A DNA stretch of 64,000 nucleotides from an uncultured Myxococcales bacterium (lineage in GTDB: Bacteria > Myxococcota > Kuafuiibacteriia > Kuafuiibacteriales > Kuafuiibacteriaceae): contig CAYYOT010000012.1 of NCBI GenBank assembly GCA_964473255.1, forward strand, positions 17,927 through 81,926, given 5' to 3'. A program made the translations under genes and the position numbers. The notes under the pieces were generated by a model that worked only from the letters and a program-made list of their open reading frames with translations, did no database searches and was not told where the DNA came from. Below are positions 4,009-17,712 of this stretch, in pieces. Numbering within the stretch: position 1 is the first letter of the stretch; each line of letters starts with the position of its first letter.

Positions 4009-4976
4009 CCGACGATCCCGACCTCGGCCTCGGCGCGCGACGCCTGCTCTTCGAGGTCCACCGTCTCACGTTCCCAGTACTGCTCGGAGTTGAAGTGCGG
4101 AAAGCTCCGAGGGAAGGCGGGGTCCGACCATCGTCGCGCAACCCAGCTGGCATAGTACACGTAACGCATGGCGCGCAGCGGCTCGACCAGGCGCAGCCAT
4201 CGGGATTCGAAGTCGCGGAACTGACGGTAGCCCTCGAGGAACACTTCGCGCTGCCGGTTGCCCTCGGCGTCGCGGTCGGGGACCAGCAGCCAGAGGTCCT
4301 GGACGGCAGGGCCCGTCACCATGTCGTCGAAGTCCAAGAAGAACCAGCCCTCCCGACCATGGAGGAGATTGCCGTGGTGGCAGTCGCCATGGATGCGGTG
4401 CGTGGGTACCCCATCGGCGGCGGCCGCATACGCCGCCCCGACGCGCTCGGCCGCCCGCCGATAGCGAGGCGCCCAGTGAGGCGGCAGGAAGGGTCCGCTT
4501 TCGAGAACTCGAAGCGGCTCTTCGATACTGCGTTCCACGGTGAGCTTCGGACGGTGGGGCGCCGAGCCGGCCGCCCCCACGTTGTGGAGGCGCGCCAGCA
4601 GCCGCCCGAGAACCTCGAGCTGGTCGTCATCCAGTTCTTCAGGCGACCGGCCGCCGGTGCGCGGCCACACCGCGTAGTGGATATCTTCCACGGTATGGAT
4701 CGTCTGACCGTCCTCGAACTCCAGCGGCGCACACACCGGGAACTCCGCCTCCTGCAGGTCCAACAGGAACCGGTGTTCGTCGTTGATGGCTTCGATGCTC
4801 CAGCGCCCCGGACGATAGAACTTGGCTACGACATGGCTTTCGTCCTCGAGCTTGAGGTCGTAGACGCGGTTCTCCAAGCAGTTGAGGGCCATGATGTGCC
4901 CCGTCGGCTCGAAGCCTCCGTTTTCGACGGCTCGTAGGACCCAGTCGTAGGTCAGTCCGACAAACCGGTCGTTCAT
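4005..4976 (-). CDS. srkA: stress-response Ser/Thr kinase SrkA (YihE/RdoA family)
   Basis: HGDCHHGNLL catalytic loop and DFDD motif. N-terminal FVGLTYDWVL. The likely start is the internal ATG (MNDRF), since the long ORF track N-terminus is Arg-rich junk. Confidence 0.7.
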   Translation of the reverse strand: MNDRFVGLTYDWVLRAVENGGFEPTGHIMALNCLENRVYDLKLEDESHVVAKFYRPGRWSIEAINDEHRFLLDLQEAEFPVCAPLEFEDGQTIHTVEDIHYAVWPRTGGRSPEELDDDQLEVLGRLLARLHNVGAAGSAPHRPKLTVERSIEEPLRVLESGPFLPPHWAPRYRRAAERVGAAYAAAADGVPTHRIHGDCHHGNLLHGREGWFFLDFDDMVTGPAVQDLWLLVPDRDAEGNRQREVFLEGYRQFRDFESRWLRLVEPLRAMRYVYYASWVARRWSDPAFPRSFPHFNSEQYWERETVDLEEQASRAEAEVGIVG

Positions 4977-5052
4977 TCGGGGCGGTGTAAATAAGCCTGA
5001 CGTGCGTGTCCAGCGGTGCCGGCATCCGGACCGCACCGCCTACGCTCGCCCG

Positions 5053-6390
5053 TCAGAAGTACAGGTTCAGGTGCTCGGGGCGCTCGGGGTTTTTGAGCGA
5101 GCGTCCCGGCTCCGGACGCCGGGCGCGCTTGGTCACCGGGCAGCTGCCGGTCTCGAGGTAGTGAAGCGCCACCCCCAGCATGCCCTCGTTCGGATCTCCG
5201 AAAGCCCCATCGACGTCGTCGCGCACCTCGCAGGATGGCTCGATGCCGTCGACGTAGTGGCCCTCGAAACGCTGATTGACGGTCTGGAAGGTCACGGGGC
5301 GAAGCACCCGGTCCCCGCAGAAACCGAAGCCATGCTGGCCGAAGGGCTTGCCGTAGGTGGACAGTCCGACGGTCGCGACCGACGCGAAGGGTGCGACTCC
5401 GCTGATGACGTGCTCCGACGCCGAGGCGGTGTCGCCCAGGGTGATGGCCACGAGCCGCTCGAAACGCGACAGACTCTGGTCCAGGGGAAGCAGCCGGTCG
5501 CTTTCCAAGCATTCGAAATTGTTCAGATTGAAGACCCGGCGAAAGAGCACTTGGCCTCGGGCTGGACGGCCGGCCAACAGGTTTCCCAAAAGACGAGCGA
5601 CCGTGATCAAGCCGCCACCGTTGTAGCGAAGGTCGAGAACGACGGTGTCGACGGCCTGTCTTTCGAAGTCGGCAAACGCCTCGCGGAGCGGCGCCTCCGC
5701 CGGCTGGATGAAGCTCCGAAGGAGGAGGTAGCCCACTTTTTCGCCCTCGACGTCGAGGATCCGGTGCAGGGGCAAGGGCGCAAAGACATGGAAGTCACGG
5801 ACCAAGGTGACTTCCCGCTCCTCGCCCGCCGGAGAGCGTACGCGGACGACGGCACGGGTCCCGGGGTCGGAGGGTCCGAGGGCTCGCGAAACGGACTCTT
5901 TGGCGGCAAGGATCTCGGAGACCGGCCGCCCGTTGATCACGACGAGCTCATCGCCCCGACGCAGCCCCAGGTCAGACGCCGGGCTCGGGGGCTCGCCCGG
6001 CTCGGTCCCGAGGACGTCGACCAGGCGCACGGTGTCGTCGACTACGCGCATCGAAAAGCCCCATCCCAGGACTTTGCCCTCTTGGAAAAAACCGACCTCG
6101 GACGAACGCGTGGTCACGTAGCTGAAGCGGTCGCGCGGCTGGATGTCGGCCAACATCGCCCAGAACAGCTCGTCCGCGGACTCATAGTCTTCGAAAGCCA
6201 GCTCGGGAAGTTGTTCGTTGAAGAGATAATGCCGGCGCAGAACGCCGTCGACGAAGCGCATCTCGTCTGCCACCGTGCAGTTCGAACTCGGGACGGAAGG
6301 AACGTCGAGCGTGCAGTTCCTGAGCTGGAGCGCGTCGTCTTCACCGCAGCTCAGCAAGCTGAGAGCGACGGCAAAGGCGAAGGGACGCAC
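5053..6390 (-). CDS. S41 family C-terminal processing peptidase (lipoprotein)
   Basis: Signal peptide plus lipobox LLSC. PDZ-like region. LDLRYNGGGL S41 motif. Confidence 0.7.
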   Translation of the reverse strand: MRPFAFAVALSLLSCGEDDALQLRNCTLDVPSVPSSNCTVADEMRFVDGVLRRHYLFNEQLPELAFEDYESADELFWAMLADIQPRDRFSYVTTRSSEVGFFQEGKVLGWGFSMRVVDDTVRLVDVLGTEPGEPPSPASDLGLRRGDELVVINGRPVSEILAAKESVSRALGPSDPGTRAVVRVRSPAGEEREVTLVRDFHVFAPLPLHRILDVEGEKVGYLLLRSFIQPAEAPLREAFADFERQAVDTVVLDLRYNGGGLITVARLLGNLLAGRPARGQVLFRRVFNLNNFECLESDRLLPLDQSLSRFERLVAITLGDTASASEHVISGVAPFASVATVGLSTYGKPFGQHGFGFCGDRVLRPVTFQTVNQRFEGHYVDGIEPSCEVRDDVDGAFGDPNEGMLGVALHYLETGSCPVTKRARRPEPGRSLKNPERPEHLNLYF

Positions 6391-6393
6391 CCT

Positions 6394-6798
6394 TCAGGCC
6401 TCGGCCGCGGGACTGGCGAAGGGTACGGCCAAGAGAAACGGCGAGATCTCCGCATCGAAGTGACTGCCGTCGGCACGGTACATTTGATAGCTGCCGTTCA
6501 TGGTTCCCCACGCGGTCCTCAGAATGCACCCCGATGTGTACTTGAAGGACTGCCGAGGCTGAAGGACCGGCTGCTCACCGACGACTCCCTCGCCCTTCAC
6601 CTCCTCGACGCGACCCTCGGCATCGGTGATCACCCAGTGTCGGCGCCTCAGCTGCACCGTGCTGGTCGACTCGTTCTTGATGTTTACGGTGTACGTGAAG
6701 GCATAGCGGTTCCGGGCCGGCTGCGACTGCTGGGGGACGAACCGCGACTCGACCCGAACCCGGACCCCGTCGGTCACTGCTTCTGACTTTCCCTCCAT
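6394..6798 (-). CDS. apaG: ApaG (DUF525) protein
   Basis: YAFTYTVNIKNES...LRRRHWVITDAEGRVEEVKGEGVVGEQPVL...GCIL matches the ApaG fold signature. Start taken at the second Met (MEGKSE). Confidence 0.75.
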   Translation of the reverse strand: MEGKSEAVTDGVRVRVESRFVPQQSQPARNRYAFTYTVNIKNESTSTVQLRRRHWVITDAEGRVEEVKGEGVVGEQPVLQPRQSFKYTSGCILRTAWGTMNGSYQMYRADGSHFDAEISPFLLAVPFASPAAEA

Positions 6799-6970
6799 GA
6801 CGCTCGGAGCGTACACACCTGGCACCCGGGCCTCCACAACAACGAGCTGATGGAGAAAACAACGAACTCATGGAGCCGATTGCTCCCGAGTCGAGCCCTC
6901 GGCCCACGCCCCGGCCCGGGCCCAGGCCCGGTCGATTCTCGATGAGGCCCCTTGGATCCCGGGTGATTAC

Positions 6971-8029
6971 GTGCCGAAAATCCGGGCGTACGCGACTCGT
7001 CATGAGGTTTCGCACGTGAAGCTCGCCCGCTCACTGGTACGCGACGCTGCGGGCCTCGCGCTCTATCGAAGCGGTCTGACCCGCCCGCTTCGGCGGTTGC
7101 GGCGTCGACTGACCGTCGTGACGTTTCATCGGGTCCTCCCCGCCGAGCAGCTTCGACGATACCCCCTTCGGGGTCTGGCGATGGAGCCCAAGGATTTTCG
7201 GTGGTTCGTCCAGTACTTCCGCCGGCACTTCGATTGCCGGACGCTCGCCGACGCCCACCAGGCCGCGAGGGCGGACGGCGATCCGCCGCGCCCTCTTCTC
7301 GCGGTGACGTTCGACGACGGTCAGATCGACAATTTCCGGTACGCGCGACCCATTCTGGACGCGTGCGGCGTTCCCGCGACCTTCTTCGTTCCGGCCGATG
7401 CCGCGCGCGGAGGGGACCCGCTGTGGCACGACCGCCTCGCCTTCGGACTTCAGCGTCTTCGGGACCGCAGCGCCCGCGAATTCGCCGAGCAATGCCGGGC
7501 TCGGGCCCAGGAGGTCGGTTCGGTGAGCGAGATGGTCGAGGCGGCGAAATCACTCGGTCCCGAGACCCGGCGGGCTTGGATCGCAGAACTCGAAGCCCAG
7601 GGCGGAACCGCCGTTCCCACTTGGGACGGCTTCATGGGCGGCGCCGAGCTCCGAACGCTGGCCGGCAGCGGGCACGAGGTGGGCTCCCACGGCGCGAGCC
7701 ACGAGCTCCTGACCGATGTGGCTCCGGACCGACTCGCGGAGGAAACCGGGGGCTCCCGGTCGGCGCTGGAGGAGCTCGTACAGGAGGCGGTGACTGCGTT
7801 CTGCTACCCGAACGGGACCCACGACCCGACCGTCCGGGCTTCGGTGAAAGCGGCGGGCTACGCTCGAGCGGTCACGACCGAATGGGGGAGCAACGACCGC
7901 ATCGACGACCCGCTCCGCCTCCGCCGATGCGACATGGCCGACGCAAACACGCGAAGGACGACCGGCGGCTTATCGGAGTCCCGTTTGGCGTGGCGGCTCT
8001 CGGGCTGGCATCCGGGACTCTCGGCGTGA
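6971..8029 (+). CDS. polysaccharide deacetylase (NodB homology domain)
   Basis: VTFDDGQIDN, ATFFV and CYPNG motifs typical of the NodB/PgdA family. Confidence 0.75.
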   Translation: MPKIRAYATRHEVSHVKLARSLVRDAAGLALYRSGLTRPLRRLRRRLTVVTFHRVLPAEQLRRYPLRGLAMEPKDFRWFVQYFRRHFDCRTLADAHQAARADGDPPRPLLAVTFDDGQIDNFRYARPILDACGVPATFFVPADAARGGDPLWHDRLAFGLQRLRDRSAREFAEQCRARAQEVGSVSEMVEAAKSLGPETRRAWIAELEAQGGTAVPTWDGFMGGAELRTLAGSGHEVGSHGASHELLTDVAPDRLAEETGGSRSALEELVQEAVTAFCYPNGTHDPTVRASVKAAGYARAVTTEWGSNDRIDDPLRLRRCDMADANTRRTTGGLSESRLAWRLSGWHPGLSA

Positions 8030-8129
8030 TGTCGATCAAGGCATTGAACCTGAAATTCAGAGAAAACTACACCTTCCAAAAATGGACGTAATCCAGCAGG
8101 ATATGTCACAAGTCCTGGTTGGGGTCGCC

Positions 8130-8375
8130 ATGCAGCATATTCGAAAGTTCGTCTTCACCGCGACGCTCGTCGCCGTCTTCTTCGGTCTCGCTCCGGGCGT
8201 CCCGATGGGCGAAGCCGAAGCCGGCTGGCTCAAAGACCTGATCCATAGGATTCGGGCGAGCCGCCAGGCCCGACAGGCCGCTCCCGAGCTCGATCCGGGC
8301 ACGGCGGGGCAAGCCATGGTGGTGCTGGCCGGCGGGGCCTATCTGATCGCTGGCCGTCGTCGTAAGAACGTCTGA
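8130..8375 (+). CDS. exosortase target mini-protein with VPEID-like C-terminal sorting signal (APELD motif, TM helix, RRRK tail)
   Basis: Signal peptide MQHIRKFVFTATLVAVFFGLAPGVPMGEAEA. C-terminus APELDPGTAGQAMVVLAGGAYLIAGRRRKNV has the PEP-CTERM-like tripartite architecture. The ORF track starts at 8082, but a GGGG RBS precedes the ATG at 8130. Confidence 0.6.
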   Translation: MQHIRKFVFTATLVAVFFGLAPGVPMGEAEAGWLKDLIHRIRASRQARQAAPELDPGTAGQAMVVLAGGAYLIAGRRRKNV

Positions 8376-8455
8376 TCGAAACGCAGGGAACTTCAGGCGA
8401 GGCGGGGCTCTCGCCTCCGCCGCGGACGCCTCCGGCGCCGCCCCTCTCCTGGGCG

Positions 8456-9991
8456 GTGTGGGCCGGCGTTCTCCTGCTGGAGTACCTGACGGTATCGTTC
8501 CTTTTCGATGCCCAGCCCCTCCGCGACGCGGCGCACGGCTGGTTTGGATACACCGGCGCGCTCGGCCCAGCCCTGGTCGCCGTCGGGGCCGGAGCTCTGG
8601 TCGTCGGCGCCGGCCCGGACCGTCGCGGGTTGGCCCTGCCCCGTGCGCCGCGGCGTCAGGCTCTGATCGCGGCGATGTGTCAGGTCTCCGCTTTCGCGAT
8701 CCTCGTCGCGGCAACCGCCGCCGTCGTCGCCGACATGACCGGGCCGGTCCTCATCGTGTGGCTCGGGGCGCTCTTGGCCGTGCTGGGCGCGACGTTTGCG
8801 GCGGTCGTCGATCTCCGCACCGGAACCGCATTCGATGGGCAGCTCGCCCGGACCGTCGGCCTCGCCGCCGCCGTCGGCATCTCCGCCTACGTCGCCGGGC
8901 AGGCGGCAACCCAGCTATGGGAGTTCCTCGCCGCCATCTCGCTGCGAGGCGCGGCGCTGTTGCTCCTACCCTTCGGTGATCTTCGGGTCGTCATACCGGA
9001 GGAGCGCCTCCTGGGCCTCGGCAACTATCTGGTGGAAGTCACGTCGGTCTGCTCCGGCGTCGAGGGTATCGGGCTCATCGTGGTCCTCGTCGGCGCCGAC
9101 CTCTGGCTCCATCGGCGACGCATCCCGCGCGCCAAGGCGTTTGTCGTGCTCGGTCTCGCCGTCGTATTCGTGCTCTTCGCCAACGTGGTGCGCATCGCCC
9201 TCTTGGTCTTCGTCGGGGCGGCCGTCTCGCCCGGGATCGCGCAGGGCGGATTTCATTCCAAGGCGGGATGGGTCCTTTACTCGCTGGTGGCCTTGGGCTT
9301 CGTCGCCGTGAACCATCGCCGACTCTATAGCCCCGAGGTCCGACCCGAGCCGTCCTCCTCGCCCGCCGCCCCGTACCTGGTTCCGGTCGTGGTCGTCGCC
9401 GCAGCCAACCTGGTGTCCAGCCTGTTCACCGTCGACTTTCCCAGCAGCTATCCGCTCACCGCGCTCGCCGGAGGAGTCGCCATCGTCTGGGCTTACAAGC
9501 ACTGGCCGGAGACCCTCCGCGCTCCGAACTGGTCATGGGCTTTCGCGGTCGGGCTCGTTGCCTACGCGCTCTGGCTCTTCCTCCTCCCCGAGCCTGAACT
9601 GGCGCGTACGCAGGCTCGAGTGGACAGCATGTGGGCGGGAGGCCCTTGGTTTTGGGCGCCCTGGATCTTCGCTCGGATCGCCGGATCCGTGCTCGTGGCT
9701 CCCGTGGTCGAAGAACTGGCTTTCCGTGGCTTCCTCCTCCGCTGGGTCGCAGATGCGGACTTCAGCTCGGTGCCCTACGACCGCTTCGTTCCGGCCGGCA
9801 TCCTCGTTTCGTCGGTTGCGTTCGGGCTCCTTCACTCGGCGGCCCTCGCCGGCGTCGCCGTGGGCATCCTGTACGCAGCCGCGCAGCTGGTCAGTGGACG
9901 ACTCGAGACTGCAGTCGTCGCTCATGCGGTGACGAACGCCTGTCTGGTCGTGCACGTGTTGGCCGGCGGAGCCTGGTGGCTCTGGCTGTGA
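8456..9991 (+). CDS. exosortase fused to CPBP/CAAX-type intramembrane protease (XrtE-like, VPEID-CTERM system)
   Basis: Polytopic N-terminal half carries the exosortase Cys (VTSVCSGVEGIG) and Arg (NVVRIALL). The C-terminal half carries the CPBP motifs EELAFRG, FGLLH and HAVTN. Confidence 0.7.
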   Translation: MWAGVLLLEYLTVSFLFDAQPLRDAAHGWFGYTGALGPALVAVGAGALVVGAGPDRRGLALPRAPRRQALIAAMCQVSAFAILVAATAAVVADMTGPVLIVWLGALLAVLGATFAAVVDLRTGTAFDGQLARTVGLAAAVGISAYVAGQAATQLWEFLAAISLRGAALLLLPFGDLRVVIPEERLLGLGNYLVEVTSVCSGVEGIGLIVVLVGADLWLHRRRIPRAKAFVVLGLAVVFVLFANVVRIALLVFVGAAVSPGIAQGGFHSKAGWVLYSLVALGFVAVNHRRLYSPEVRPEPSSSPAAPYLVPVVVVAAANLVSSLFTVDFPSSYPLTALAGGVAIVWAYKHWPETLRAPNWSWAFAVGLVAYALWLFLLPEPELARTQARVDSMWAGGPWFWAPWIFARIAGSVLVAPVVEELAFRGFLLRWVADADFSSVPYDRFVPAGILVSSVAFGLLHSAALAGVAVGILYAAAQLVSGRLETAVVAHAVTNACLVVHVLAGGAWWLWL

Positions 9992-9998
9992 GCTCGTC

Positions 9999-10787
9999 TC
10001 AGAAGATACAAAAAGCCTCGGCCGGTCCGCAGCACACCTCCCGGTCCTCGTCGCTCGCGTTGATGCACTGAGACCCTTGAATCCGGCAGAGCGGCTGCTG
10101 GACGATATCGCACACCGCGCAGTTGCAGGGCACGACCACCAAGGGGTCACAGGCCCGTCGAGCCGTCGTACAGCACGCCGAATCCGGACCGTCGGCGCAC
10201 TCCTGGGCGTCGAGCTGGCATGCACCCACCCGGTCCACGGCGCCGCACCGCTCTTCGCACGCGCAGGGATCGGGCTCGGCCCGAAGGCAGGCCAGCGAGG
10301 CCAACAGCACGCGTCGAGTACAGGTGAGATCGTTGCACTGGCGGTCCGCCTGGCAATCGGCAGCATCGGCCGCTAGCTCTTGGCAGCGTGGGTTGTCCCC
10401 GGTGAAGTCGCTGCAGTCCTGCCTGCAGTTTTCGAGCTCGCCCTCTTCCAGCTCTTCGCACTCCACGCGGATTTCGCAGGCTTCCTCGCACACCTCGACC
10501 ACGGTGGGTGGTGGAGAGGCATCGGCAACCATCGCGTCGCGACGAGTCTGGGCATCGGGAAAGGAAGTGGCATCGGGACGACCCGCATCCACACCCCGGG
10601 CGTCGGGTCGATCGATCGACGCATCGGGTGTCGCGCGGGCGTCGGAGCTCTCGGCGTCGACTCGAGCGGCATCGGTGCGGCCAGCGCCGCCGTCGTCCGA
10701 GTCGCTGCAGGCCGACGCGACCAGGGCCAGAGTGACGAGAGGGAAAAGTGCGCGAGTCACGGACCGGTGATACCACGCAAGCTTCAC
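9999..10787 (-). CDS. cysteine-rich secreted lipoprotein
   Basis: Lipobox LVASAC. D/A/P-rich linker followed by more than 30 Cys in CxxC/CxC patterns. Confidence 0.45.
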   Translation of the reverse strand: MKLAWYHRSVTRALFPLVTLALVASACSDSDDGGAGRTDAARVDAESSDARATPDASIDRPDARGVDAGRPDATSFPDAQTRRDAMVADASPPPTVVEVCEEACEIRVECEELEEGELENCRQDCSDFTGDNPRCQELAADAADCQADRQCNDLTCTRRVLLASLACLRAEPDPCACEERCGAVDRVGACQLDAQECADGPDSACCTTARRACDPLVVVPCNCAVCDIVQQPLCRIQGSQCINASDEDREVCCGPAEAFCIF

Positions 10788-10793
10788 CGGGCC

Positions 10794-13700
10794 TCAAAAG
10801 AAGTTCCGTGAGACCGCACCGGGGGTGGGACCGGCCAGCGGCTCGAAGCGATCGACGATGACGTTGCTGACCTGGTGCCGTCGCTCGAGCTTACCGACCG
10901 CAGCCAGCAGCACGGCATCCCGGACCCACGAACGGTGCCGTTCCCACACGTGGGAAAAGACCACCAGGTTCATCTGTCCGTCTTCATCCTCGAGCGTCAT
11001 GAATATGACGCCTTTCGCCGTTCCCGGTCGCTGGCGGACGGTCACCAAGCCCCCCACCTTCACCCGGCGACCGGGAGTCGTCGCTTCGACTTGGCGGTAG
11101 CCCATGATCCCCTGGCGCTTCAGGTCTTCACGAAGAAGCGCAACCGGATGAACCCGGGTCGACAGTCCGAGCGATCGAAAGTCTGCCTGCATCTCCTCCA
11201 CCGGGTCCATCGTCGACAGCCCACGCGCTGGAAGAGGGGTGGATACGGTTCGTAGGAGCGGAGCGCCGCGATCGAAACCCAACACCTGCCAAAGCGCCTG
11301 TCGGCGGTCGCAGCCCAGACCGGAAAACGCATCGGCGGCGGCGAGCTGGACCGCGGCATCCAGCGGCACATCGGCTCGGTGAAGAACGTCGGTGACGCTC
11401 TCGAACGGTCTCTCGGTTCGCGCCAGGACGATCCGCTTCGCCACCGGCTCGCTGAGCTGACCGACTTGGTCGAGTCCGATGCGGACCGCCGGTTGGACGG
11501 GCCGACCGAAGCTCTTTCGCCCCTCGACATGGTCGGCCCAAGGCGTGTGACGTTTTTCCCGATGGGGACTCTCGTCGTACCAGGGCGGGATACGCTCGTC
11601 GTCCGGCACTTCGAGGGTCGTCTCCGCTTCGCTGTTCACGACGCAGGGGGGGCGCACCTCGAGGCCGTGCCGCCGACCGTCTTCGATCAGAGTGTGCACG
11701 CCGTAGAAGCCCATCGGCTGGCTATTGATGAGCGCGGCGAGAAATGCCGCCGGGTGATAGCGCTTCAGATAGCAGGAGGCGTACCCGATCAGGGCGAAGG
11801 ATGCCGCGTGAGACTCGGGAAAGCCGTACCCGCCAAAGCCCTGGATCATCTTGAAGATTCGCTCGGCAAAGTCCCTCTCCATACCGTTTTCGAGCATTCC
11901 GTCGATGATGCGGTCGCGCATCTTGTCGATGTGGAGCTGTGAGTTCCAGCCGATCGCTCGCCGAAGATGATCGGCTTCGCCTGGAGAAAAGCCCGCCACC
12001 TGTACGGCCACCTTCATGACCTGCTCTTGGAACAGCGGAAGTCCGTAAGTTCGACCCAGGATCTTCTCCAGGTCCGGGTGGGGATAATCGACGGGCTCGG
12101 TGCCTTCCCGTCGCCGCAGGTATGGATGCACCATGTCACCCTGGATCGGCCCGGGCCGAATGATGGCCACCGCTACCACGAGATCATAGAACGTTCGCGG
12201 GCGCAGCCGCGGGAGGGTCTGCATCTGGGCGCGGGACTCGACCTGAAACGTCCCCACGGTGTCGGCGTCGCCGATCATTTCGTACACCGCCGGCACTTCC
12301 GCGGGTACGGTCGCCAGCGATAGGTCTCGTCCTTCCGTCTGGCGAATCGCGTCGAACGCCCGGCGCACGACGGAAAGCATTCCCAAGGCGAGAAGGTCGA
12401 CCTTGACCAGCCCCAGCGTCTCCACGTCGCGCTTGTCCCAAGCGATGACCGTCCGATGCTCCATCGTTGCGTTCTCGACGGGGAGCAGCTCGACGATCGG
12501 ATCCTTGGTGATGACGAATCCACCCGAGTGTAGCCCGAGATGACGAGGAAAGCCGCGAAGCTCTTCGGCCCAGCGAACCAGAAGACGCACGCGGGCATCG
12601 CGAGGGTCCATCCCGGCTTGGCGAACTTCCTCGTCGGTCATGTCCGGTGCCGACCAGTGGCCACGGCCGTCCGTGATACGGTCGATCTGGTCTTCGCCCA
12701 GCCCCAAGACCTTGCCCACTTCGCGGTACGCGAGCTTGCTCCGATAGCAGATGACGTTGGCGACCATCGCCGCCCGGTCCCGGCCATACTTTTCGAACAC
12801 GTACTGCATGACTTCCTCTCGGCGCTGATGCTCGAAGTCGACGTCGATGTCCGGCGGCTCGCCTCGCTCCGCGGAGATGAAGCGCTCGAAGAGCAGGTTC
12901 ATGCGCACGGGATCGATGGCCGTGATCCCCAAGCAAAAGCAGACGATGGAGTTGGCGGCCGAACCGCGGCCCTGGCAAAGAATCCCGCGCGAACGCGCGA
13001 AGCGCACGACATCCCAAACGGTGAGAAAATAGCCCTCGAAGCCGAGGTCTTCGATCAGCTTCATCTCGTGGTCGATCTGGTCCTCGACCTCACGCGGAAT
13101 GCCCCGAGGATAGCGCTCCTGCGCGCCCTTTCGGACCAGCTTCCACAGATAGCCGAGCCCGGTTTCGCCTTCGGGCAGCACTTCCAGGGTGAAGTCGTGG
13201 ACCAGCTCGTCCAGGCGGAATCGGCAGGCATCGGCGAGCTCGACCGTCCGGGCAACGGCAGCGGCGTGCTCGGGGATCAGCCGGTACATCTCTTCGGCGC
13301 TGCGAAGGTAACCCATGCCGTGGGGCAACAGGTGTCGTCCCGCTTCGTCGAGCCGTTTCCCCACCCGGACGCCCGTCAAGATATCCTGCAGCGGCTTTCG
13401 CTCCCGCGCATGCATGACCACGCCGCCGGTGGCGACCACGGGGATTCCAAAACGCTGGGCGGCCGCCGTCACCTCCGCGATGCGCTCCGGGTCGTCGGGC
13501 CGAAACGCCCGCTCCACCGAGAGATGAAGCCGGTCGCCGAACAGGTCGCGTTCGCGGGCGAGCGAAAGATGGTCCGGCGGACCGACGTGGATGGCGAAGA
13601 GCCCGGCGGCCTGCGCGGCGACGTCGTCGAACGAGAGCTCGAACCCGCCTTTGCCGGTCTTCAGGCGGGCTTCACTCAAGAGCCGACAGAGTCGGCCGTA

Positions 13701-13979
13701 GCTGGCGCGATCCGAGGGCAGAAGAACCAGCCCCGGACCGGTCGTGGAAACACCGGTCAGGCGGACTTCGGTGCCGACCAGGATCTGAACGCCGTGCTCT
13801 TTACCCGCGTTGAAAGCACGGACCACGCCGTACAGGCCGGCATGGTCGGTGATGGCCAGCCGGTCGTGGCCGAGGCGCGCCGCGGTGGCGACCAGCTCTT
13901 CCGGATGGGACGCCCCCCGCAGGAACGAGAAGTTCGACGCGCACCGCAGCTCGACGTATCCGGCCACCGGAGAGAACAA
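10794..13979 (-). CDS. dnaE2: error-prone DNA polymerase DnaE2 (ImuC)
   Basis: 1061 aa. N-terminal YVELRCASNFSFLRGAS PHP signature typical of DnaE2. Pol III alpha core. TTG start in the track. Confidence 0.85.
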   Translation of the reverse strand: MFSPVAGYVELRCASNFSFLRGASHPEELVATAARLGHDRLAITDHAGLYGVVRAFNAGKEHGVQILVGTEVRLTGVSTTGPGLVLLPSDRASYGRLCRLLSEARLKTGKGGFELSFDDVAAQAAGLFAIHVGPPDHLSLARERDLFGDRLHLSVERAFRPDDPERIAEVTAAAQRFGIPVVATGGVVMHARERKPLQDILTGVRVGKRLDEAGRHLLPHGMGYLRSAEEMYRLIPEHAAAVARTVELADACRFRLDELVHDFTLEVLPEGETGLGYLWKLVRKGAQERYPRGIPREVEDQIDHEMKLIEDLGFEGYFLTVWDVVRFARSRGILCQGRGSAANSIVCFCLGITAIDPVRMNLLFERFISAERGEPPDIDVDFEHQRREEVMQYVFEKYGRDRAAMVANVICYRSKLAYREVGKVLGLGEDQIDRITDGRGHWSAPDMTDEEVRQAGMDPRDARVRLLVRWAEELRGFPRHLGLHSGGFVITKDPIVELLPVENATMEHRTVIAWDKRDVETLGLVKVDLLALGMLSVVRRAFDAIRQTEGRDLSLATVPAEVPAVYEMIGDADTVGTFQVESRAQMQTLPRLRPRTFYDLVVAVAIIRPGPIQGDMVHPYLRRREGTEPVDYPHPDLEKILGRTYGLPLFQEQVMKVAVQVAGFSPGEADHLRRAIGWNSQLHIDKMRDRIIDGMLENGMERDFAERIFKMIQGFGGYGFPESHAASFALIGYASCYLKRYHPAAFLAALINSQPMGFYGVHTLIEDGRRHGLEVRPPCVVNSEAETTLEVPDDERIPPWYDESPHREKRHTPWADHVEGRKSFGRPVQPAVRIGLDQVGQLSEPVAKRIVLARTERPFESVTDVLHRADVPLDAAVQLAAADAFSGLGCDRRQALWQVLGFDRGAPLLRTVSTPLPARGLSTMDPVEEMQADFRSLGLSTRVHPVALLREDLKRQGIMGYRQVEATTPGRRVKVGGLVTVRQRPGTAKGVIFMTLEDEDGQMNLVVFSHVWERHRSWVRDAVLLAAVGKLERRHQVSNVIVDRFEPLAGPTPGAVSRNFF

Positions 13980-14137: not shown

Positions 14138-14902
14138 TCAGCATCCGGCTTGAGTGTCGGGGACCTCGGTCGTCACGAATGCTTCGCGCACGAAGGTCGT
14201 GCCGCCGGGGACCGGGACCTCGACGCGATATCGGTCGACCTGGTCGGCGATGTCGGAGGGACGCGTGGTCTGACCGACGCGGGCGCGATTGATGATCAGC
14301 TGGACCGCCCCACCGTCGATCGTCACTTCGCCCGGCACGCCGAAGTCGAAAGCGAAGACCAGTGAATCGGGGAGGGCGAGCTCGGTCCCGGCGACATCGA
14401 GCATGACCAGCCGCGTGCCGAGCTCCAGCTGCCGCTGCTCCTCTGAAGTGAGGTTCGTGACCTCGGGCGTCACCAGACGAAACCCAGACCAAATGTGGCC
14501 GATGCCGTCCTCCTGGGAACCACACTCCCAGAGCAAAAGGTCACCTTGGCGGACGTCGGATTGCTCCTTCAGACGCTGCGGGTCGGGATTCATGGCCGAT
14601 GTGATCGTGAGCTCCGGGTCACCGCTCGGCGGGTCGCCCGGCGTGTACCGTCCGGCGTCTTCCACCATGGCGTCACCGGACGCGTCGGCGCCCCCGTCAT
14701 CCCTCCCAGCGTCGGGCTCGCCCGCGTCGATAAGACCCGCCTCGGCCCGGGCGTCGGGACGGTCGACCGCCGCGTCAGGGCGTACGTCCGGACCCGACGT
14801 GGCGTCATCCGACGCGCGTGCGTCGGCCGCTCCCGACGAGCCATCGTCGTCGGAGCACGCGAACAGCGCGAGGATGAATACCGCAGGTAAGCACCGTTGC
14901 AT
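14138..14902 (-). CDS. secreted lipoprotein with D/A/P-rich linker
   Basis: Lipobox LALFAC after the second Met. Low-complexity PDA-rich N-terminal region. Confidence 0.4.
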   Translation of the reverse strand: MQRCLPAVFILALFACSDDDGSSGAADARASDDATSGPDVRPDAAVDRPDARAEAGLIDAGEPDAGRDDGGADASGDAMVEDAGRYTPGDPPSGDPELTITSAMNPDPQRLKEQSDVRQGDLLLWECGSQEDGIGHIWSGFRLVTPEVTNLTSEEQRQLELGTRLVMLDVAGTELALPDSLVFAFDFGVPGEVTIDGGAVQLIINRARVGQTTRPSDIADQVDRYRVEVPVPGGTTFVREAFVTTEVPDTQAGC

Positions 14903-14958
14903 GGAGGACCGAGGATGGGCGAAACCGGCGAAGCGGGCAAGCATCGTGCATTTTACCG

Positions 14959-17712
14959 ATGCCGGAGCGCGTTCGGTTTAACCGAGTCGAGCTCCCGTCT
15001 GGTAGATCCTACGGGTCGATGCGGGCATCGGGAATTCTGTTCGGCGGGCTGTTGGCCCTGACCGCTGCTGCCTGCAGCGAATCCTCGGGCGGCGGGCTTC
15101 CTTCCGACTGCCGGGGCGCCGCCGACGGAACCACCTGCGACGACGGCAGCATCTGCACCACGGCCAGCGAGTGCCAGGGCGGCGAGTGCGTGGGCACCGC
15201 CGAGGTCGGATGCATCACTTCAGATCCATGCCTGGTCGCGTTCTGTGAGGACGGCGCCTGCGCCACCGCTCCTGCCCCGGACGGCGCCCTTTGCGCGGAC
15301 GCGAATCCCGAAACCTGCGAGCCCGCAGGACTGTGCCGAGCCGGTGTGTGCGAACGTCCGGCGCTCGACTGTCCGGACGTCGCGGGGTGCCAGGTTCGCA
15401 CCTGGTCCGGAGAAGACTGGGCGCTCGCCGCGGTCGACGACGGCACCATCTGCGAGGACGGTGACCCCTGCACCGATGGCGATACCTGCTTCGACGGGCT
15501 CTGCCAGGCGGGCGATCCCACGGTCTGCACCGCAAGCGGGCCCTGTACCCGAGCGCTGTGCGATCCGGAGACTGGCTGCGTCGAGGAAAGCGTGCGGGAC
15601 GGCACCCCCTGCGAAGACTCCGACCTCTGCACGCTGGAAACCGTCTGCTCGGGGGGCGCGTGCGTGGCCACCCGTGAGGTCGAGTGCCTGACGGGTTCCT
15701 GCATCGAAAGCTCGGCCTGCGTTCCCGAGACCGGGCGCTGCGAGTTCGCGTTCGTGGCCGACGATACCCCGTGCGACGACCGCGACATCTGCACCGAGGG
15801 CGACCACTGCATGTCCGGCAACTGCTCGCCGAGGGTCGAGCTGCCGTTCGACGCAAAGCCGTGCACCGAGGGCATTTGCTTTCAGGAGGTGGCGGCCGCG
15901 GCGGGTCTGGACTTTCGAGGCCGCCCCCCGATCGTGAATGCCCATGGGGCGGCCGTCGCTCTCTTCGACATGGACGGCGATGGCGACCTCGACATCGCGG
16001 CCGCCACCGAGACCACGCCCATCCAGCTCTACGAAAACCGCGGACAGCTTCGCTTCGAGAACGTGACCGAGGGCTCGGGTCTCGACGGCGTGGTCCAGTC
16101 GGCGTCGGCGCGCCTGTTCGCCATCGCAGTGGGCGACATCGACAACGACGGAGACTCCGACCTCTACCTGGGGATGCAGGACGTCGAGGACTACCTGTTC
16201 GAAAACGAGGGCAACGGTACCTTCACCGACGTCACCGCCGAGAGCGGGCTGGCCGGAACCCTCGACACCAACGGCGCCGACTTCGGTGACTTCGACAACG
16301 ACGGCGACCTGGACCTCATCGTGGGCAACTACATCAAGATCTCGCGTTTTCCGAACCACGTCCCCGAGCCCAATCAGCTGTACATGAACCTCGGTGACGG
16401 ACGCTTCGAGGATGTGACCACAAAGGCGCGGGTGGGCGGGGGCGACATCGGCGGCGAGGGCACCACGCTGATCGTGCGCTGGTCGGACTACGACCGCGAC
16501 GGCGACCTCGACTTGTTCGAGTGCAACGACTTCGGGGCCAACGTGGGCAAGAGCCGCCTCTACCAGAACACGGGAAAGGAGAGCCTCGGCGAGCGCTTCA
16601 TCGACGTCTCGGAAGCCATGAATATGGACCTCGAGATCTACTGCATGTCGGTCACGACCGGCGACCACGACCGCGACGGCGACATCGACTACTACTTCAC
16701 CAACATCGGCCGCCACCAGATGTTCGAGAACCGCGCCCCGGCGCCGTTCGTCGAGGTCACGGATGCGATCACGTCGCTTCAGTACGACCAGTGCCGGGTG
16801 GATGAGCTCGCCGCCGGCTGGTCGGCGCTATGGGTCGACCTCGACCAGGACGGATGGCTGGATCTCTTCTCAGCCAACGGCCACGTGAACGCCTCCGACG
16901 AGTTCGTCAATAGCGAGGTGGTCCGGAACTCGGTGCTGAAACACGACGGGCCTTCGCTGACGTACACCGACATCACCCGGAGCACGCGGGCCGGCACGCA
17001 AAATCAGTCCCGCGGTGCGGCGGCCGGCGACCTCGACGGGGACGGTGACCTCGACATCGTCGTGGGCAACATGATCGGCCCGCTGGAGCTCTTCGAGAAC
17101 GTCTCGCCCGACCCGGGAGGCTACATGGTCGTGGACGTCAGGGGGACCTCATCCAATCGAGACGGATACCACGCCTTCATCGAAGTCTTCTTCGAGGACG
17201 GGACCCGGATGTCCCACGAGGTCGACCCCCACGTGGGCTACCAAGGTGTCTCCCAAAAGGCCGCCCACTTCGGTCTCGGTCCCGGCTCGCATCCGGAAGA
17301 CGTCATCGACGAACTCCGCGTCACGTGGCCCGCTACCGGCATCGAGCAGAACCATTACGGATACCTGGGTTGGAACTCCACGCAGACGCTGGTCGAGCCC
17401 AGCGTGACCCTGGACGCCGTGACGGTCTTGGGCGCCTGGTTTGCGGGTCAGACGACGCCGGTGCAGTTCGACGTCACCAATCACGGTGCGACGAACAAAG
17501 AGATTCAGCTGTCGCTCCTCCACTTTAGCGACGACCGGGTGAACGCCGTGGTTCCGCCGGGGAAGACGACGGTGGACCTGGAAGCGACCCTCGAGGAAGG
17601 CAGCGAGGGCACGTGGGAGTTCCTGTTCACCCTGCGGGAGCTCGAAAACGGCAGCAGCCTGGTTGGGGTCGGCGACATGGTTCGACGCGTGGTGACGGTC
17701 ATTGAACCCTAG
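14959..17712 (+). CDS. CRTAC1-family lipoprotein (FG-GAP/VCBS repeats plus ASPIC/UnbV domain) with N-terminal Myxococcus cysteine-rich repeats
   Basis: Lipobox LTAAAC (alternative start 15019). About 8 copies of CxDGxxCTxxxxCxxGxC. Multiple DxDGDGDLD FG-GAP calcium-binding motifs. C-terminal UnbV-like segment. Confidence 0.6.
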   Translation: MPERVRFNRVELPSGRSYGSMRASGILFGGLLALTAAACSESSGGGLPSDCRGAADGTTCDDGSICTTASECQGGECVGTAEVGCITSDPCLVAFCEDGACATAPAPDGALCADANPETCEPAGLCRAGVCERPALDCPDVAGCQVRTWSGEDWALAAVDDGTICEDGDPCTDGDTCFDGLCQAGDPTVCTASGPCTRALCDPETGCVEESVRDGTPCEDSDLCTLETVCSGGACVATREVECLTGSCIESSACVPETGRCEFAFVADDTPCDDRDICTEGDHCMSGNCSPRVELPFDAKPCTEGICFQEVAAAAGLDFRGRPPIVNAHGAAVALFDMDGDGDLDIAAATETTPIQLYENRGQLRFENVTEGSGLDGVVQSASARLFAIAVGDIDNDGDSDLYLGMQDVEDYLFENEGNGTFTDVTAESGLAGTLDTNGADFGDFDNDGDLDLIVGNYIKISRFPNHVPEPNQLYMNLGDGRFEDVTTKARVGGGDIGGEGTTLIVRWSDYDRDGDLDLFECNDFGANVGKSRLYQNTGKESLGERFIDVSEAMNMDLEIYCMSVTTGDHDRDGDIDYYFTNIGRHQMFENRAPAPFVEVTDAITSLQYDQCRVDELAAGWSALWVDLDQDGWLDLFSANGHVNASDEFVNSEVVRNSVLKHDGPSLTYTDITRSTRAGTQNQSRGAAAGDLDGDGDLDIVVGNMIGPLELFENVSPDPGGYMVVDVRGTSSNRDGYHAFIEVFFEDGTRMSHEVDPHVGYQGVSQKAAHFGLGPGSHPEDVIDELRVTWPATGIEQNHYGYLGWNSTQTLVEPSVTLDAVTVLGAWFAGQTTPVQFDVTNHGATNKEIQLSLLHFSDDRVNAVVPPGKTTVDLEATLEEGSEGTWEFLFTLRELENGSSLVGVGDMVRRVVTVIEP

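Follow-up and report, generated by a model that had tools for sequence, protein, structure and literature searches.

Within the 64-kb stretch of contig CAYYOT010000012.1 analysed here (hereafter the window, to which all coordinates given without a locus label refer), we found a gene for an exosortase fused to a CPBP protease (8456-9991) and, directly upstream of it, a small gene (8130-8375) whose product ends in a putative C-terminal sorting tag. In our reading the two genes are a two-gene XrtE-type sorting module of a Myxococcota-like bacterium which works by the mechanism proposed below, and we consider this reading to be about 75% probable. The region from 6971 to 10787 had been described in a first-pass annotation as holding four open reading frames (ORFs). 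All four were confirmed in the ORF list of the window, and the coordinates and gene descriptions given there proved accurate.

A fused exosortase and its small tagged neighbour

The enzyme of 511 amino acids (aa) matched TIGR04162, the NCBIfam model for exosortase E/protease, over residues 81-509 with 154.6 bits against a cutoff of 150 (E 4.6e-45). Moreover, residues 303-510 passed TIGR03008, which describes the CAAX-protease-like protein found in PEP-CTERM systems, with 110 bits against a cutoff of 81. In Pfam, PF09721 (Exosortase_EpsH) covered residues 20-284 and PF02517 (Rce1-like) residues 403-495 of the same polypeptide. Other exosortase subtypes remained far under threshold, with 19.6 bits against 208 for XrtA (TIGR03109), and the MrtJ model reached 33.3 bits with a cutoff of 75. 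The exosortase-CPBP fusion had been proposed in the first-pass annotation together with a search with exosortase E/protease hidden Markov models (HMMs) as a check, and this search bore it out, the catalytic residues being intact. The label "metalloprotease" used there has to be replaced, since the current classification places CPBP/Rce1-type enzymes among the glutamic intramembrane proteases (PMC11980579).

Conservation was read from an alignment of 37 sequences, the window enzyme and 36 homologs. Here C199, N243, R246 and H267 were invariant, as were E419, E420, R424, F456 and H490, and H460 and N494 were conserved to at least 90%. Cys, Arg and His form the proposed catalytic triad of exosortases and archaeosortases (Haft, bioRxiv 10.1101/2023.06.07.544157), and EExxxR, FxxxH and HxxxN are motifs of CPBP glutamic intramembrane proteases (PMC11980579). 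All catalytic residues of both domains are retained. AlphaFold2 gave one confident model of an all-helical, polytopic protein (pLDDT 90.4, pTM 0.79). The Arg-rich loops at residues 53-67, 218-227 and 287-303 follow a positive-inside pattern when the sequence is read together with the AlphaFold2 helix boundaries. Because of this distribution C199 would be placed at the periplasmic end of its own helix, which is consistent with cleavage at the outer face of the membrane.

The small ORF can start at two ATG codons, of which the one at 8130 is likely the true start; it gives a typical signal-peptide beginning (MQHIRKFVF...). The signal peptide is predicted to be cleaved after A-E-A, and the AEA|GW junction is common to the window protein and the partner protein in L015. 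The latter is the closest related locus among 68 loci with a relative of the enzyme, which were drawn from GTDB representative genomes and labelled with L-numbers; the genome of the window does not belong to the set searched. The two small proteins are 37% identical across their whole length (E 4e-19), and the AEA|GWL junction and the start of the mature region are aligned. Besides, the guanine-cytosine (GC) content at the three codon positions of the small ORF (72/50/76) resembles that of the enzyme gene (73/50/83) and of real neighbouring genes, unlike that of overlapping shadow ORFs. As judged from this composition, the full-length identity to the L015 partner and the E-value of 2.2e-12 with the tag HMM described below, the small ORF is a genuine gene and a chance ORF is excluded. 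Its cargo contains Trp and is cationic, with a net charge of +3 when counted through the PE of the tag, and the tag itself (AAPELDPGTAGQ...) is free of Cys. The idea of an amphipathic helix or antimicrobial peptide was rejected for the window peptide, as its hydrophobic moment of 0.38 is not significant and 64% of shuffled sequences scored as high. High moments were seen in the peptides of a few relatives (L015, L035).

The curated model for the VPEID-CTERM tag, TIGR04161, gave no match to the window protein at E<=10. The partners of other XrtE homologs that were tested reached only 17-22 bits with this model, whose cutoff is 33, and even an Aquisphaera partner that literally reads VPEID obtained 22 of the 33 bits required. 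TIGR04161 is therefore too narrow for this clade. For this clade, an HMM was built from 45 distinct tags of ORFs lying beside homologous enzymes, with the window left out, and was searched against all ORFs from 25 aa upwards in the window (1138 ORFs) and in the 68 loci. The window protein scored 46.1 bits (E 2.2e-12), and no second tag was found among the 1138 ORFs of the 64 kb, the next best reaching 9.6 bits (E 0.54). Across the loci, true matches had at least 34.7 bits and other ORFs at most 12.9. Other tripartite C-terminal signals were not detected in the window in a plausible reading frame.

The tag consensus reads x-V-P-E-L-D-P-x-x-A-G-x-A-L-x-L-L-x-G-G-(6)-R-R-R. In this motif P and E are invariant (45/45), followed by L (35/45), D (34/45) and the second P (25/45); the two glycines are present in 41/45 and 40/45 of the partner tags and the three arginines in 42/45, 43/45 and 37/45. 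The window tag fits every conserved column, and A instead of V at the first position is a common variant. An approximately 80-aa neighbour ending in APELD, a transmembrane segment and RRRK had been noted in the first-pass annotation, and it was recovered as the 81-aa precursor with APELDP, GG helix and RRRK directly upstream of the enzyme gene. Its assignment to the XrtE/VPEID-CTERM system stood in part: the enzyme passes TIGR04162 and the tag fits the clade HMM, while the VPEID-CTERM model, which had also been named as a check, misses the partner. Since TIGR04161 gives no match, the designation of the window protein as putative XrtE substrate rests on the clade HMM and on synteny.

Related enzymes and their tagged partners

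A scan across all 1.84 billion cluster representatives revealed 888 clusters (50% identity) with E<=1e-30. Essentially all of these were full-length fusions of 500-570 aa, and many relatives had been named "exosortase E/protease (VPEID-CTERM system)" by JGI or NCBI. The best non-self match of the window enzyme was 41% identical; genes of the window are also present in SRA run SRR6462991. Its median identity to the 36 family members was 35%, whereas these members share 38% among themselves. The window enzyme is a lone, divergent lineage, ordinary in kind, within the catalogued exosortase E family, and the window copy adds only this lineage to what has already been catalogued.

The 68 loci stem nearly all from metagenome-assembled genomes (MAGs) of Myxococcota (Polyangiales, Sandaracinaceae, Kofleriaceae and others), with a few from Planctomycetota, Gemmatimonadota and Hyphomicrobium. 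Of the 68 loci, 53 have a tagged ORF no more than 6 kb from the enzyme gene, usually directly upstream, so that the comparative synteny suggested as a check in the first-pass annotation supported the pairing. Including the window, 56 tagged ORFs were collected, 42 of which lie immediately upstream on the same strand, 7 immediately downstream and 7 at a distance of 2-3.5 kb. The upstream partners are separated from the first possible start of the enzyme gene by a median of 27 nucleotides (nt; 40 measured), and the window gap is 80 nt. Unsupervised clustering of the neighbouring ORFs yielded no widely conserved partner besides the tagged gene; otherwise it gave shadow ORFs of xrtE and small lineage-specific groups. 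In L020 two tagged genes (1254-2804 and 5421-5771), clear paralogs with near-identical tags, lie beside one enzyme gene, and L025 also has two (5291-5824 and 7801-8175) near one enzyme gene. In L015, whose enzyme is 44% identical to that of the window, the gene just upstream of the miniprotein gene (4369-5115, +) encodes a product ending in ...GCQGVTASSLLWLLLPFGLRRRRSCA, a MYXO-CTERM-like tag with Cys. This is consistent with a Myxococcota host that has several sorting systems.

Most partner precursors have 65-120 aa. The region between signal peptide and PE comprises about 6-60 residues with a median of 36, lengths that were obtained with a crude signal-peptide rule which fails on a few large proteins. 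These mature regions are not conserved between lineages and are often rich in Arg/Lys, His or Trp; examples are RRRPRRPRRRPRPRPRP, GHGHGHGHG and SWWSRVRRAWRAR. Extreme low complexity was observed in L062 (5241-5507), L038 (5608-5907), L044 (5033-5653) and L047 (5189-5509), for example GHDNGHGHGHGHGGG, RRRPRRPRRRPRPRPRPRPRP and DRDRGHDQGQNRGQGHERDRGNGHGQHGH, which hints at binding of metal or polyanions rather than at a folded domain. The shortest conserved cargo was seen in L057 (5187-5384) and L066 (5125-5325) from Hyphomicrobium and Proteobacteria MAGs, where about 8 residues (KPFWYCPP or RPFWWCPP, containing Cys) are followed by VPEFD.

Large tagged partners of 200-290 aa occur in Polyangiaceae loci (L036 2329-3219, -; L050 2228-3109, +; L042, L052, L054, L032 and L034). 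Two large partners contain choice-of-anchor domains, L in one (254 bits) and K in the other (114 bits), and five others share an "ETVSYDFTA...LPSSL" domain without a family match. Choice-of-anchor families take their name from C-terminal anchors that differ from organism to organism. Because the xPELD tag is also found on members of such families with interchangeable anchors, these partners provide independent evidence that the tag is a genuine sorting signal.

Locus layout and flanking genes

The features of the locus are listed in Table 1. Both flanking genes of the first-pass annotation, the deacetylase and the Cys-rich lipoprotein, are real. The deacetylase gene lies on the same strand 100 nt upstream of ATG 8130, is itself preceded by a divergent intergenic region after apaG, and may be co-transcribed with the pair here. 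Its product reached only 25.8 bits on TIGR03006, the deacetylase model of XrtA systems, with a cutoff of 276. The putative lipoprotein is acidic (50 D+E versus 24 K+R), has 26 of its 27 Cys within the last 163 residues and matched no Pfam or NCBIfam family. Its gene and xrtE converge, their stop codons lying 7 nt apart, and the lipoprotein gene is located directly downstream of dnaE2 on the strand of the latter; therefore, it is part of another transcription unit than xrtE. It is an odd neighbour for a mutasome gene such as a dnaE2-type polymerase.

Table 1. Coordinates of the sorting module, its domains and motifs, and the two flanking genes in the window
Feature	Position	Strand	Description
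Polysaccharide deacetylase family gene	6971..8029	+	352 aa; Pfam PF01522 Polysacc_deac_1, 75.6 bits; flank only
Small ORF	8082..8375	+	97 aa from ATG 8082; 81 aa from ATG 8130
81-aa precursor gene, putative XrtE substrate	8130..8375	+	Ends ...AAPELDPGTAGQAMVVLAGGAYLIAGRRRKNV; alternative ATG 8082 gives 97 aa
Predicted Sec signal peptide	8130..8222	+	MQHIRKFVFTATLVAVFFGLAPGVPMGEAEA; basic n-region, hydrophobic core, AxA site, read from sequence
Mature cargo region	8223..8279	+	GWLKDLIHRIRASRQA; about 19 residues ahead of tag
Signature motif APELDP	8280..8297	+	Clade consensus V-P-E-L-D-P
Hydrophobic transmembrane segment	8298..8354	+	GTAGQAMVVLAGGAYLIAG; central GG
C-terminal basic cluster RRRKNV	8355..8372	+	Putative cytoplasmic stop-transfer signal
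xrtE-type gene	8456..9991	+	511-aa exosortase/CPBP glutamic-protease fusion
Exosortase domain	8513..9307	+	Enzyme residues 20-284
Catalytic candidate Cys199	9050-9052	+	Invariant in 37-sequence alignment
Catalytic candidate Arg246	9191-9193	+	Invariant in 37-sequence alignment
Catalytic candidate His267	9254-9256	+	Invariant in 37-sequence alignment
CPBP (Rce1-like) domain	9362..9985	+	Enzyme residues 303-510
CPBP motif E419-E420-x3-R424	9710-9727	+	EExxxR
CPBP motif F456-x3-H460	9821-9835	+	FxxxH
CPBP motif H490-x3-N494	9923-9937	+	HxxxN
Cys-rich putative lipoprotein gene	9999..10787	-	262 aa; lipobox-like ASAC at Cys27; flank only

The wider surroundings consist of unrelated genes for a methyltransferase, a UDG-family protein, an APH-type kinase, an S41 peptidase, ApaG, the DnaE2-type polymerase and an FG-GAP/ASPIC protein. 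The product of the polymerase gene (10794-13979, -), 1061 aa long, is of the DNA polymerase III alpha type, contains PHP, NTPase, finger, HHH and OB domains and has the size of the error-prone DnaE2. Upstream of its gene lies an ORF without a Pfam match (14138-14944, -). A further gene (14959-17712, +) encodes a large secreted-type protein of 917 aa with multiple FG-GAP/VCBS-like repeats and an ASPIC/UnbV domain, which is unrelated to the exosortase pair.

Genes for polysaccharide synthesis or export (glycosyltransferase, Wzx/Wzy) were not present among the window neighbours of the pair. Moreover, a tblastn search of the 68 loci, up to 6 kb from XrtE, detected no homolog of the deacetylase, the lipoprotein, DnaE2, ApaG, the S41 peptidase, the APH kinase or two further neighbours. 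The deacetylase and the Cys-rich lipoprotein are thus incidental and stand outside the sorting module, and the link to exopolysaccharide (EPS) that the first-pass annotation had drawn from the deacetylase is not upheld by its model score, by the other loci or by the genes nearby. A hairpin between the substrate and enzyme genes was considered as an attenuator and was not significant (z = -1.23). No promoter-like site was found, and the single terminator-like site falls inside the small gene.

Proposed mechanism, alternatives and known systems

In the mechanism that we propose, the 81-aa precursor would be exported by Sec and its signal peptide would be removed after AEA. The C-terminal helix of the tag would hold the precursor in the inner membrane, with RRRK on the cytoplasmic side. 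The exosortase domain would recognise APELDP at the periplasmic end of this helix and cut by means of the conserved residues Cys199, Arg246 and His267. By analogy with ArtA and XrtA, an acyl-enzyme might be formed which hands the peptide over to an acceptor, either lipid or glycan, in a sortase-like manner. The fused CPBP protease (E419/E420/R424, H490/N494) may act on the same molecule. Our preferred guess is that the GG-containing helix left behind is cleared or cut further by this protease, because GG is almost as conserved as PE. As the cargo has only about 20 residues, is cationic and contains Trp, the product is probably a short peptide, presumably attached to the envelope, rather than a folded surface protein.

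Several observations weigh against this picture or narrow it. Where the precursor is cut, what accepts it and what the CPBP domain does are inferred, and the searchable literature gave no experimental test of any member of the XrtE family; it contained no mention of VPEID-CTERM, TIGR04161 or TIGR04162, and all matches to "XrtE" were unrelated. The enzyme is only 4.6 bits above the TIGR04162 cutoff, its first ~80 residues are unaligned, and TIGR04161 is blind to the adjacent partner. In addition, 15 of the 68 loci, some of them truncated, have no tagged ORF within 6 kb, which means that adjacency is common and not obligatory. With two tagged genes each, L020 and L025 indicate that one-to-one pairing is not universal. 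Several loci have partners of 200-300 aa, so that a tiny cargo is not universal in the family either, and the single-copy count of the tag covers 64 kb of this genome.

Part of this evidence would also fit an enzyme that is not dedicated to its neighbour but serves several xPELD-tagged proteins encoded elsewhere in the genome, the adjacent miniprotein being only one of its substrates. We regard this as unlikely. It would explain the loci with two tagged genes, the seven tagged ORFs that do not adjoin the enzyme gene, the related enzymes accompanied by choice-of-anchor cargo and the loci without a partner within 6 kb, in which partners can be remote; and a count over 64 kb leaves room for further tags. 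However, no second tag was found among the ORFs of the window, and 42 of the 56 tagged ORFs are a single small gene immediately upstream, which is the pattern by which dedicated systems are defined (Haft, bioRxiv 10.1101/2023.06.07.544157). The miniprotein might instead be the functional product, either as a cationic peptide that is released for signalling or antimicrobial action, with the CPBP ("bacteriocin-processing/immunity") domain serving in maturation or self-protection, or as a pseudo-substrate that regulates the protease. The short mature regions rich in Arg, Lys, His or Trp point in this direction, as does the conservation of the mature part within the closest pair (AEAGWL..., window versus L015), and the CPBP family includes bacteriocin-related members (PMC11980579). 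Such a function is nevertheless improbable: the tag is a standard tripartite anchoring signal, which in related genomes is also borne by ordinary surface proteins of the choice-of-anchor type, amphipathicity was not detectable in the window peptide, and the neighbourhood lacks conserved genes for a transporter, immunity or a regulator.

Very improbable, in our view, is a cell-surface polysaccharide module comprising the pair, the NodB-type deacetylase and perhaps the lipoprotein. The position of the deacetylase gene makes co-transcription possible, and XrtA systems have an associated deacetylase family, TIGR03006. This model is missed by a wide margin, though, and the flanking genes of the window do not recur near XrtE in the 68 loci. 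Moreover, glycosyltransferase, Wzx/Wzy or export genes are lacking nearby, and the lipoprotein gene is convergent and follows dnaE2. High GC also yields spurious ORFs, 67 of which with at least 40 aa overlap 5000-13000, and the tag likeness of the small ORF could have been accidental. The chance of this is negligible given the gap between its HMM E-value and the 0.54 of the next best window ORF, the full-length identity to the L015 partner, the gene-like codon-position GC and the position beside the enzyme that is conserved across loci.

Returning to the two-gene sorting module, where an exosortase cuts and what it attaches its substrates to could be addressed here with about the smallest and most tractable substrate, a cargo of ~20 residues. 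The peptide is accessible to synthesis, to tracking by mass spectrometry and to heterologous co-expression. Because TIGR04161 misses most Myxococcota partners, the small partner genes are probably unannotated or unnamed in many genomes of this phylum. Tentatively, and as a possibility rather than an expectation, we suggest that in this clade the module matures a cationic, Trp- or His-rich miniature peptide of ribosomal origin, about 20-35 residues long. Its transfer to an envelope lipid or glycan would fall to the exosortase, and the CPBP domain would dispose of the GG helix. If this is true, the peptides would form a class, matured by exosortases and linked to the envelope, that has so far gone unrecognised, and no natural system would be simpler for finding what exosortases attach their substrates to.

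Among known systems, the one described by TIGR04162 and TIGR04161 has the same exosortase-CAAX/CPBP fusion, a small tagged gene immediately upstream and a tag with P-E-x-D, a transmembrane helix and an Arg cluster. The window differs in its tag APELDP, which is invisible to TIGR04161, and in its Myxococcota-like host, the model having been built on other lineages. The XrtE/VPEID-CTERM system has been catalogued by comparative genomics, and we know of no experiment on it. XrtA with its PEP-CTERM substrates belongs to the same superfamily with the same catalytic residues and a PEP-like tag (VPE...), and the C-terminal half of the window enzyme passes TIGR03008. XrtA has many substrates and is encoded in EPS loci, whereas the window holds a two-gene module without EPS genes; in the XrtA system the CAAX-protease-like protein is separate, while both proteins are fused here. 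Membership in the XrtA/PEP-CTERM system was rejected in view of the scores on TIGR03109 (19.6/208) and TIGR03006 (25.8/276), the lack of EPS neighbours and the lack of another tagged ORF in the window.

The CPBP "myxosortases" MrtJ (JDVT-CTERM) and MrtX (MYXO-CTERM) share the EExxxR and HxxxN motifs, and MrtJ is likewise part of a dedicated pair of enzyme and single-target gene (Haft, bioRxiv 10.1101/2023.06.07.544157; PMC11980579). Unlike the window enzyme they have no exosortase domain, and their tags contain an invariant Cys which is thought to be lipidated before cleavage. A myxosortase-type assignment was rejected, as the window tag has no Cys and the MrtJ score lies below its cutoff of 75 bits. 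In the ArtA/PGF-CTERM system of Haloferax volcanii, the C-terminal helix is removed in a step that is coupled to the attachment of a lipid (Haft, bioRxiv 10.1101/2023.06.07.544157). ArtA is archaeal, lacks a fused CPBP domain and has a different motif, its cargo being a large S-layer glycoprotein. Nevertheless, as a homologous Cys/Arg/His enzyme it is the best experimental analogue for the chemistry that we propose for the window pair.

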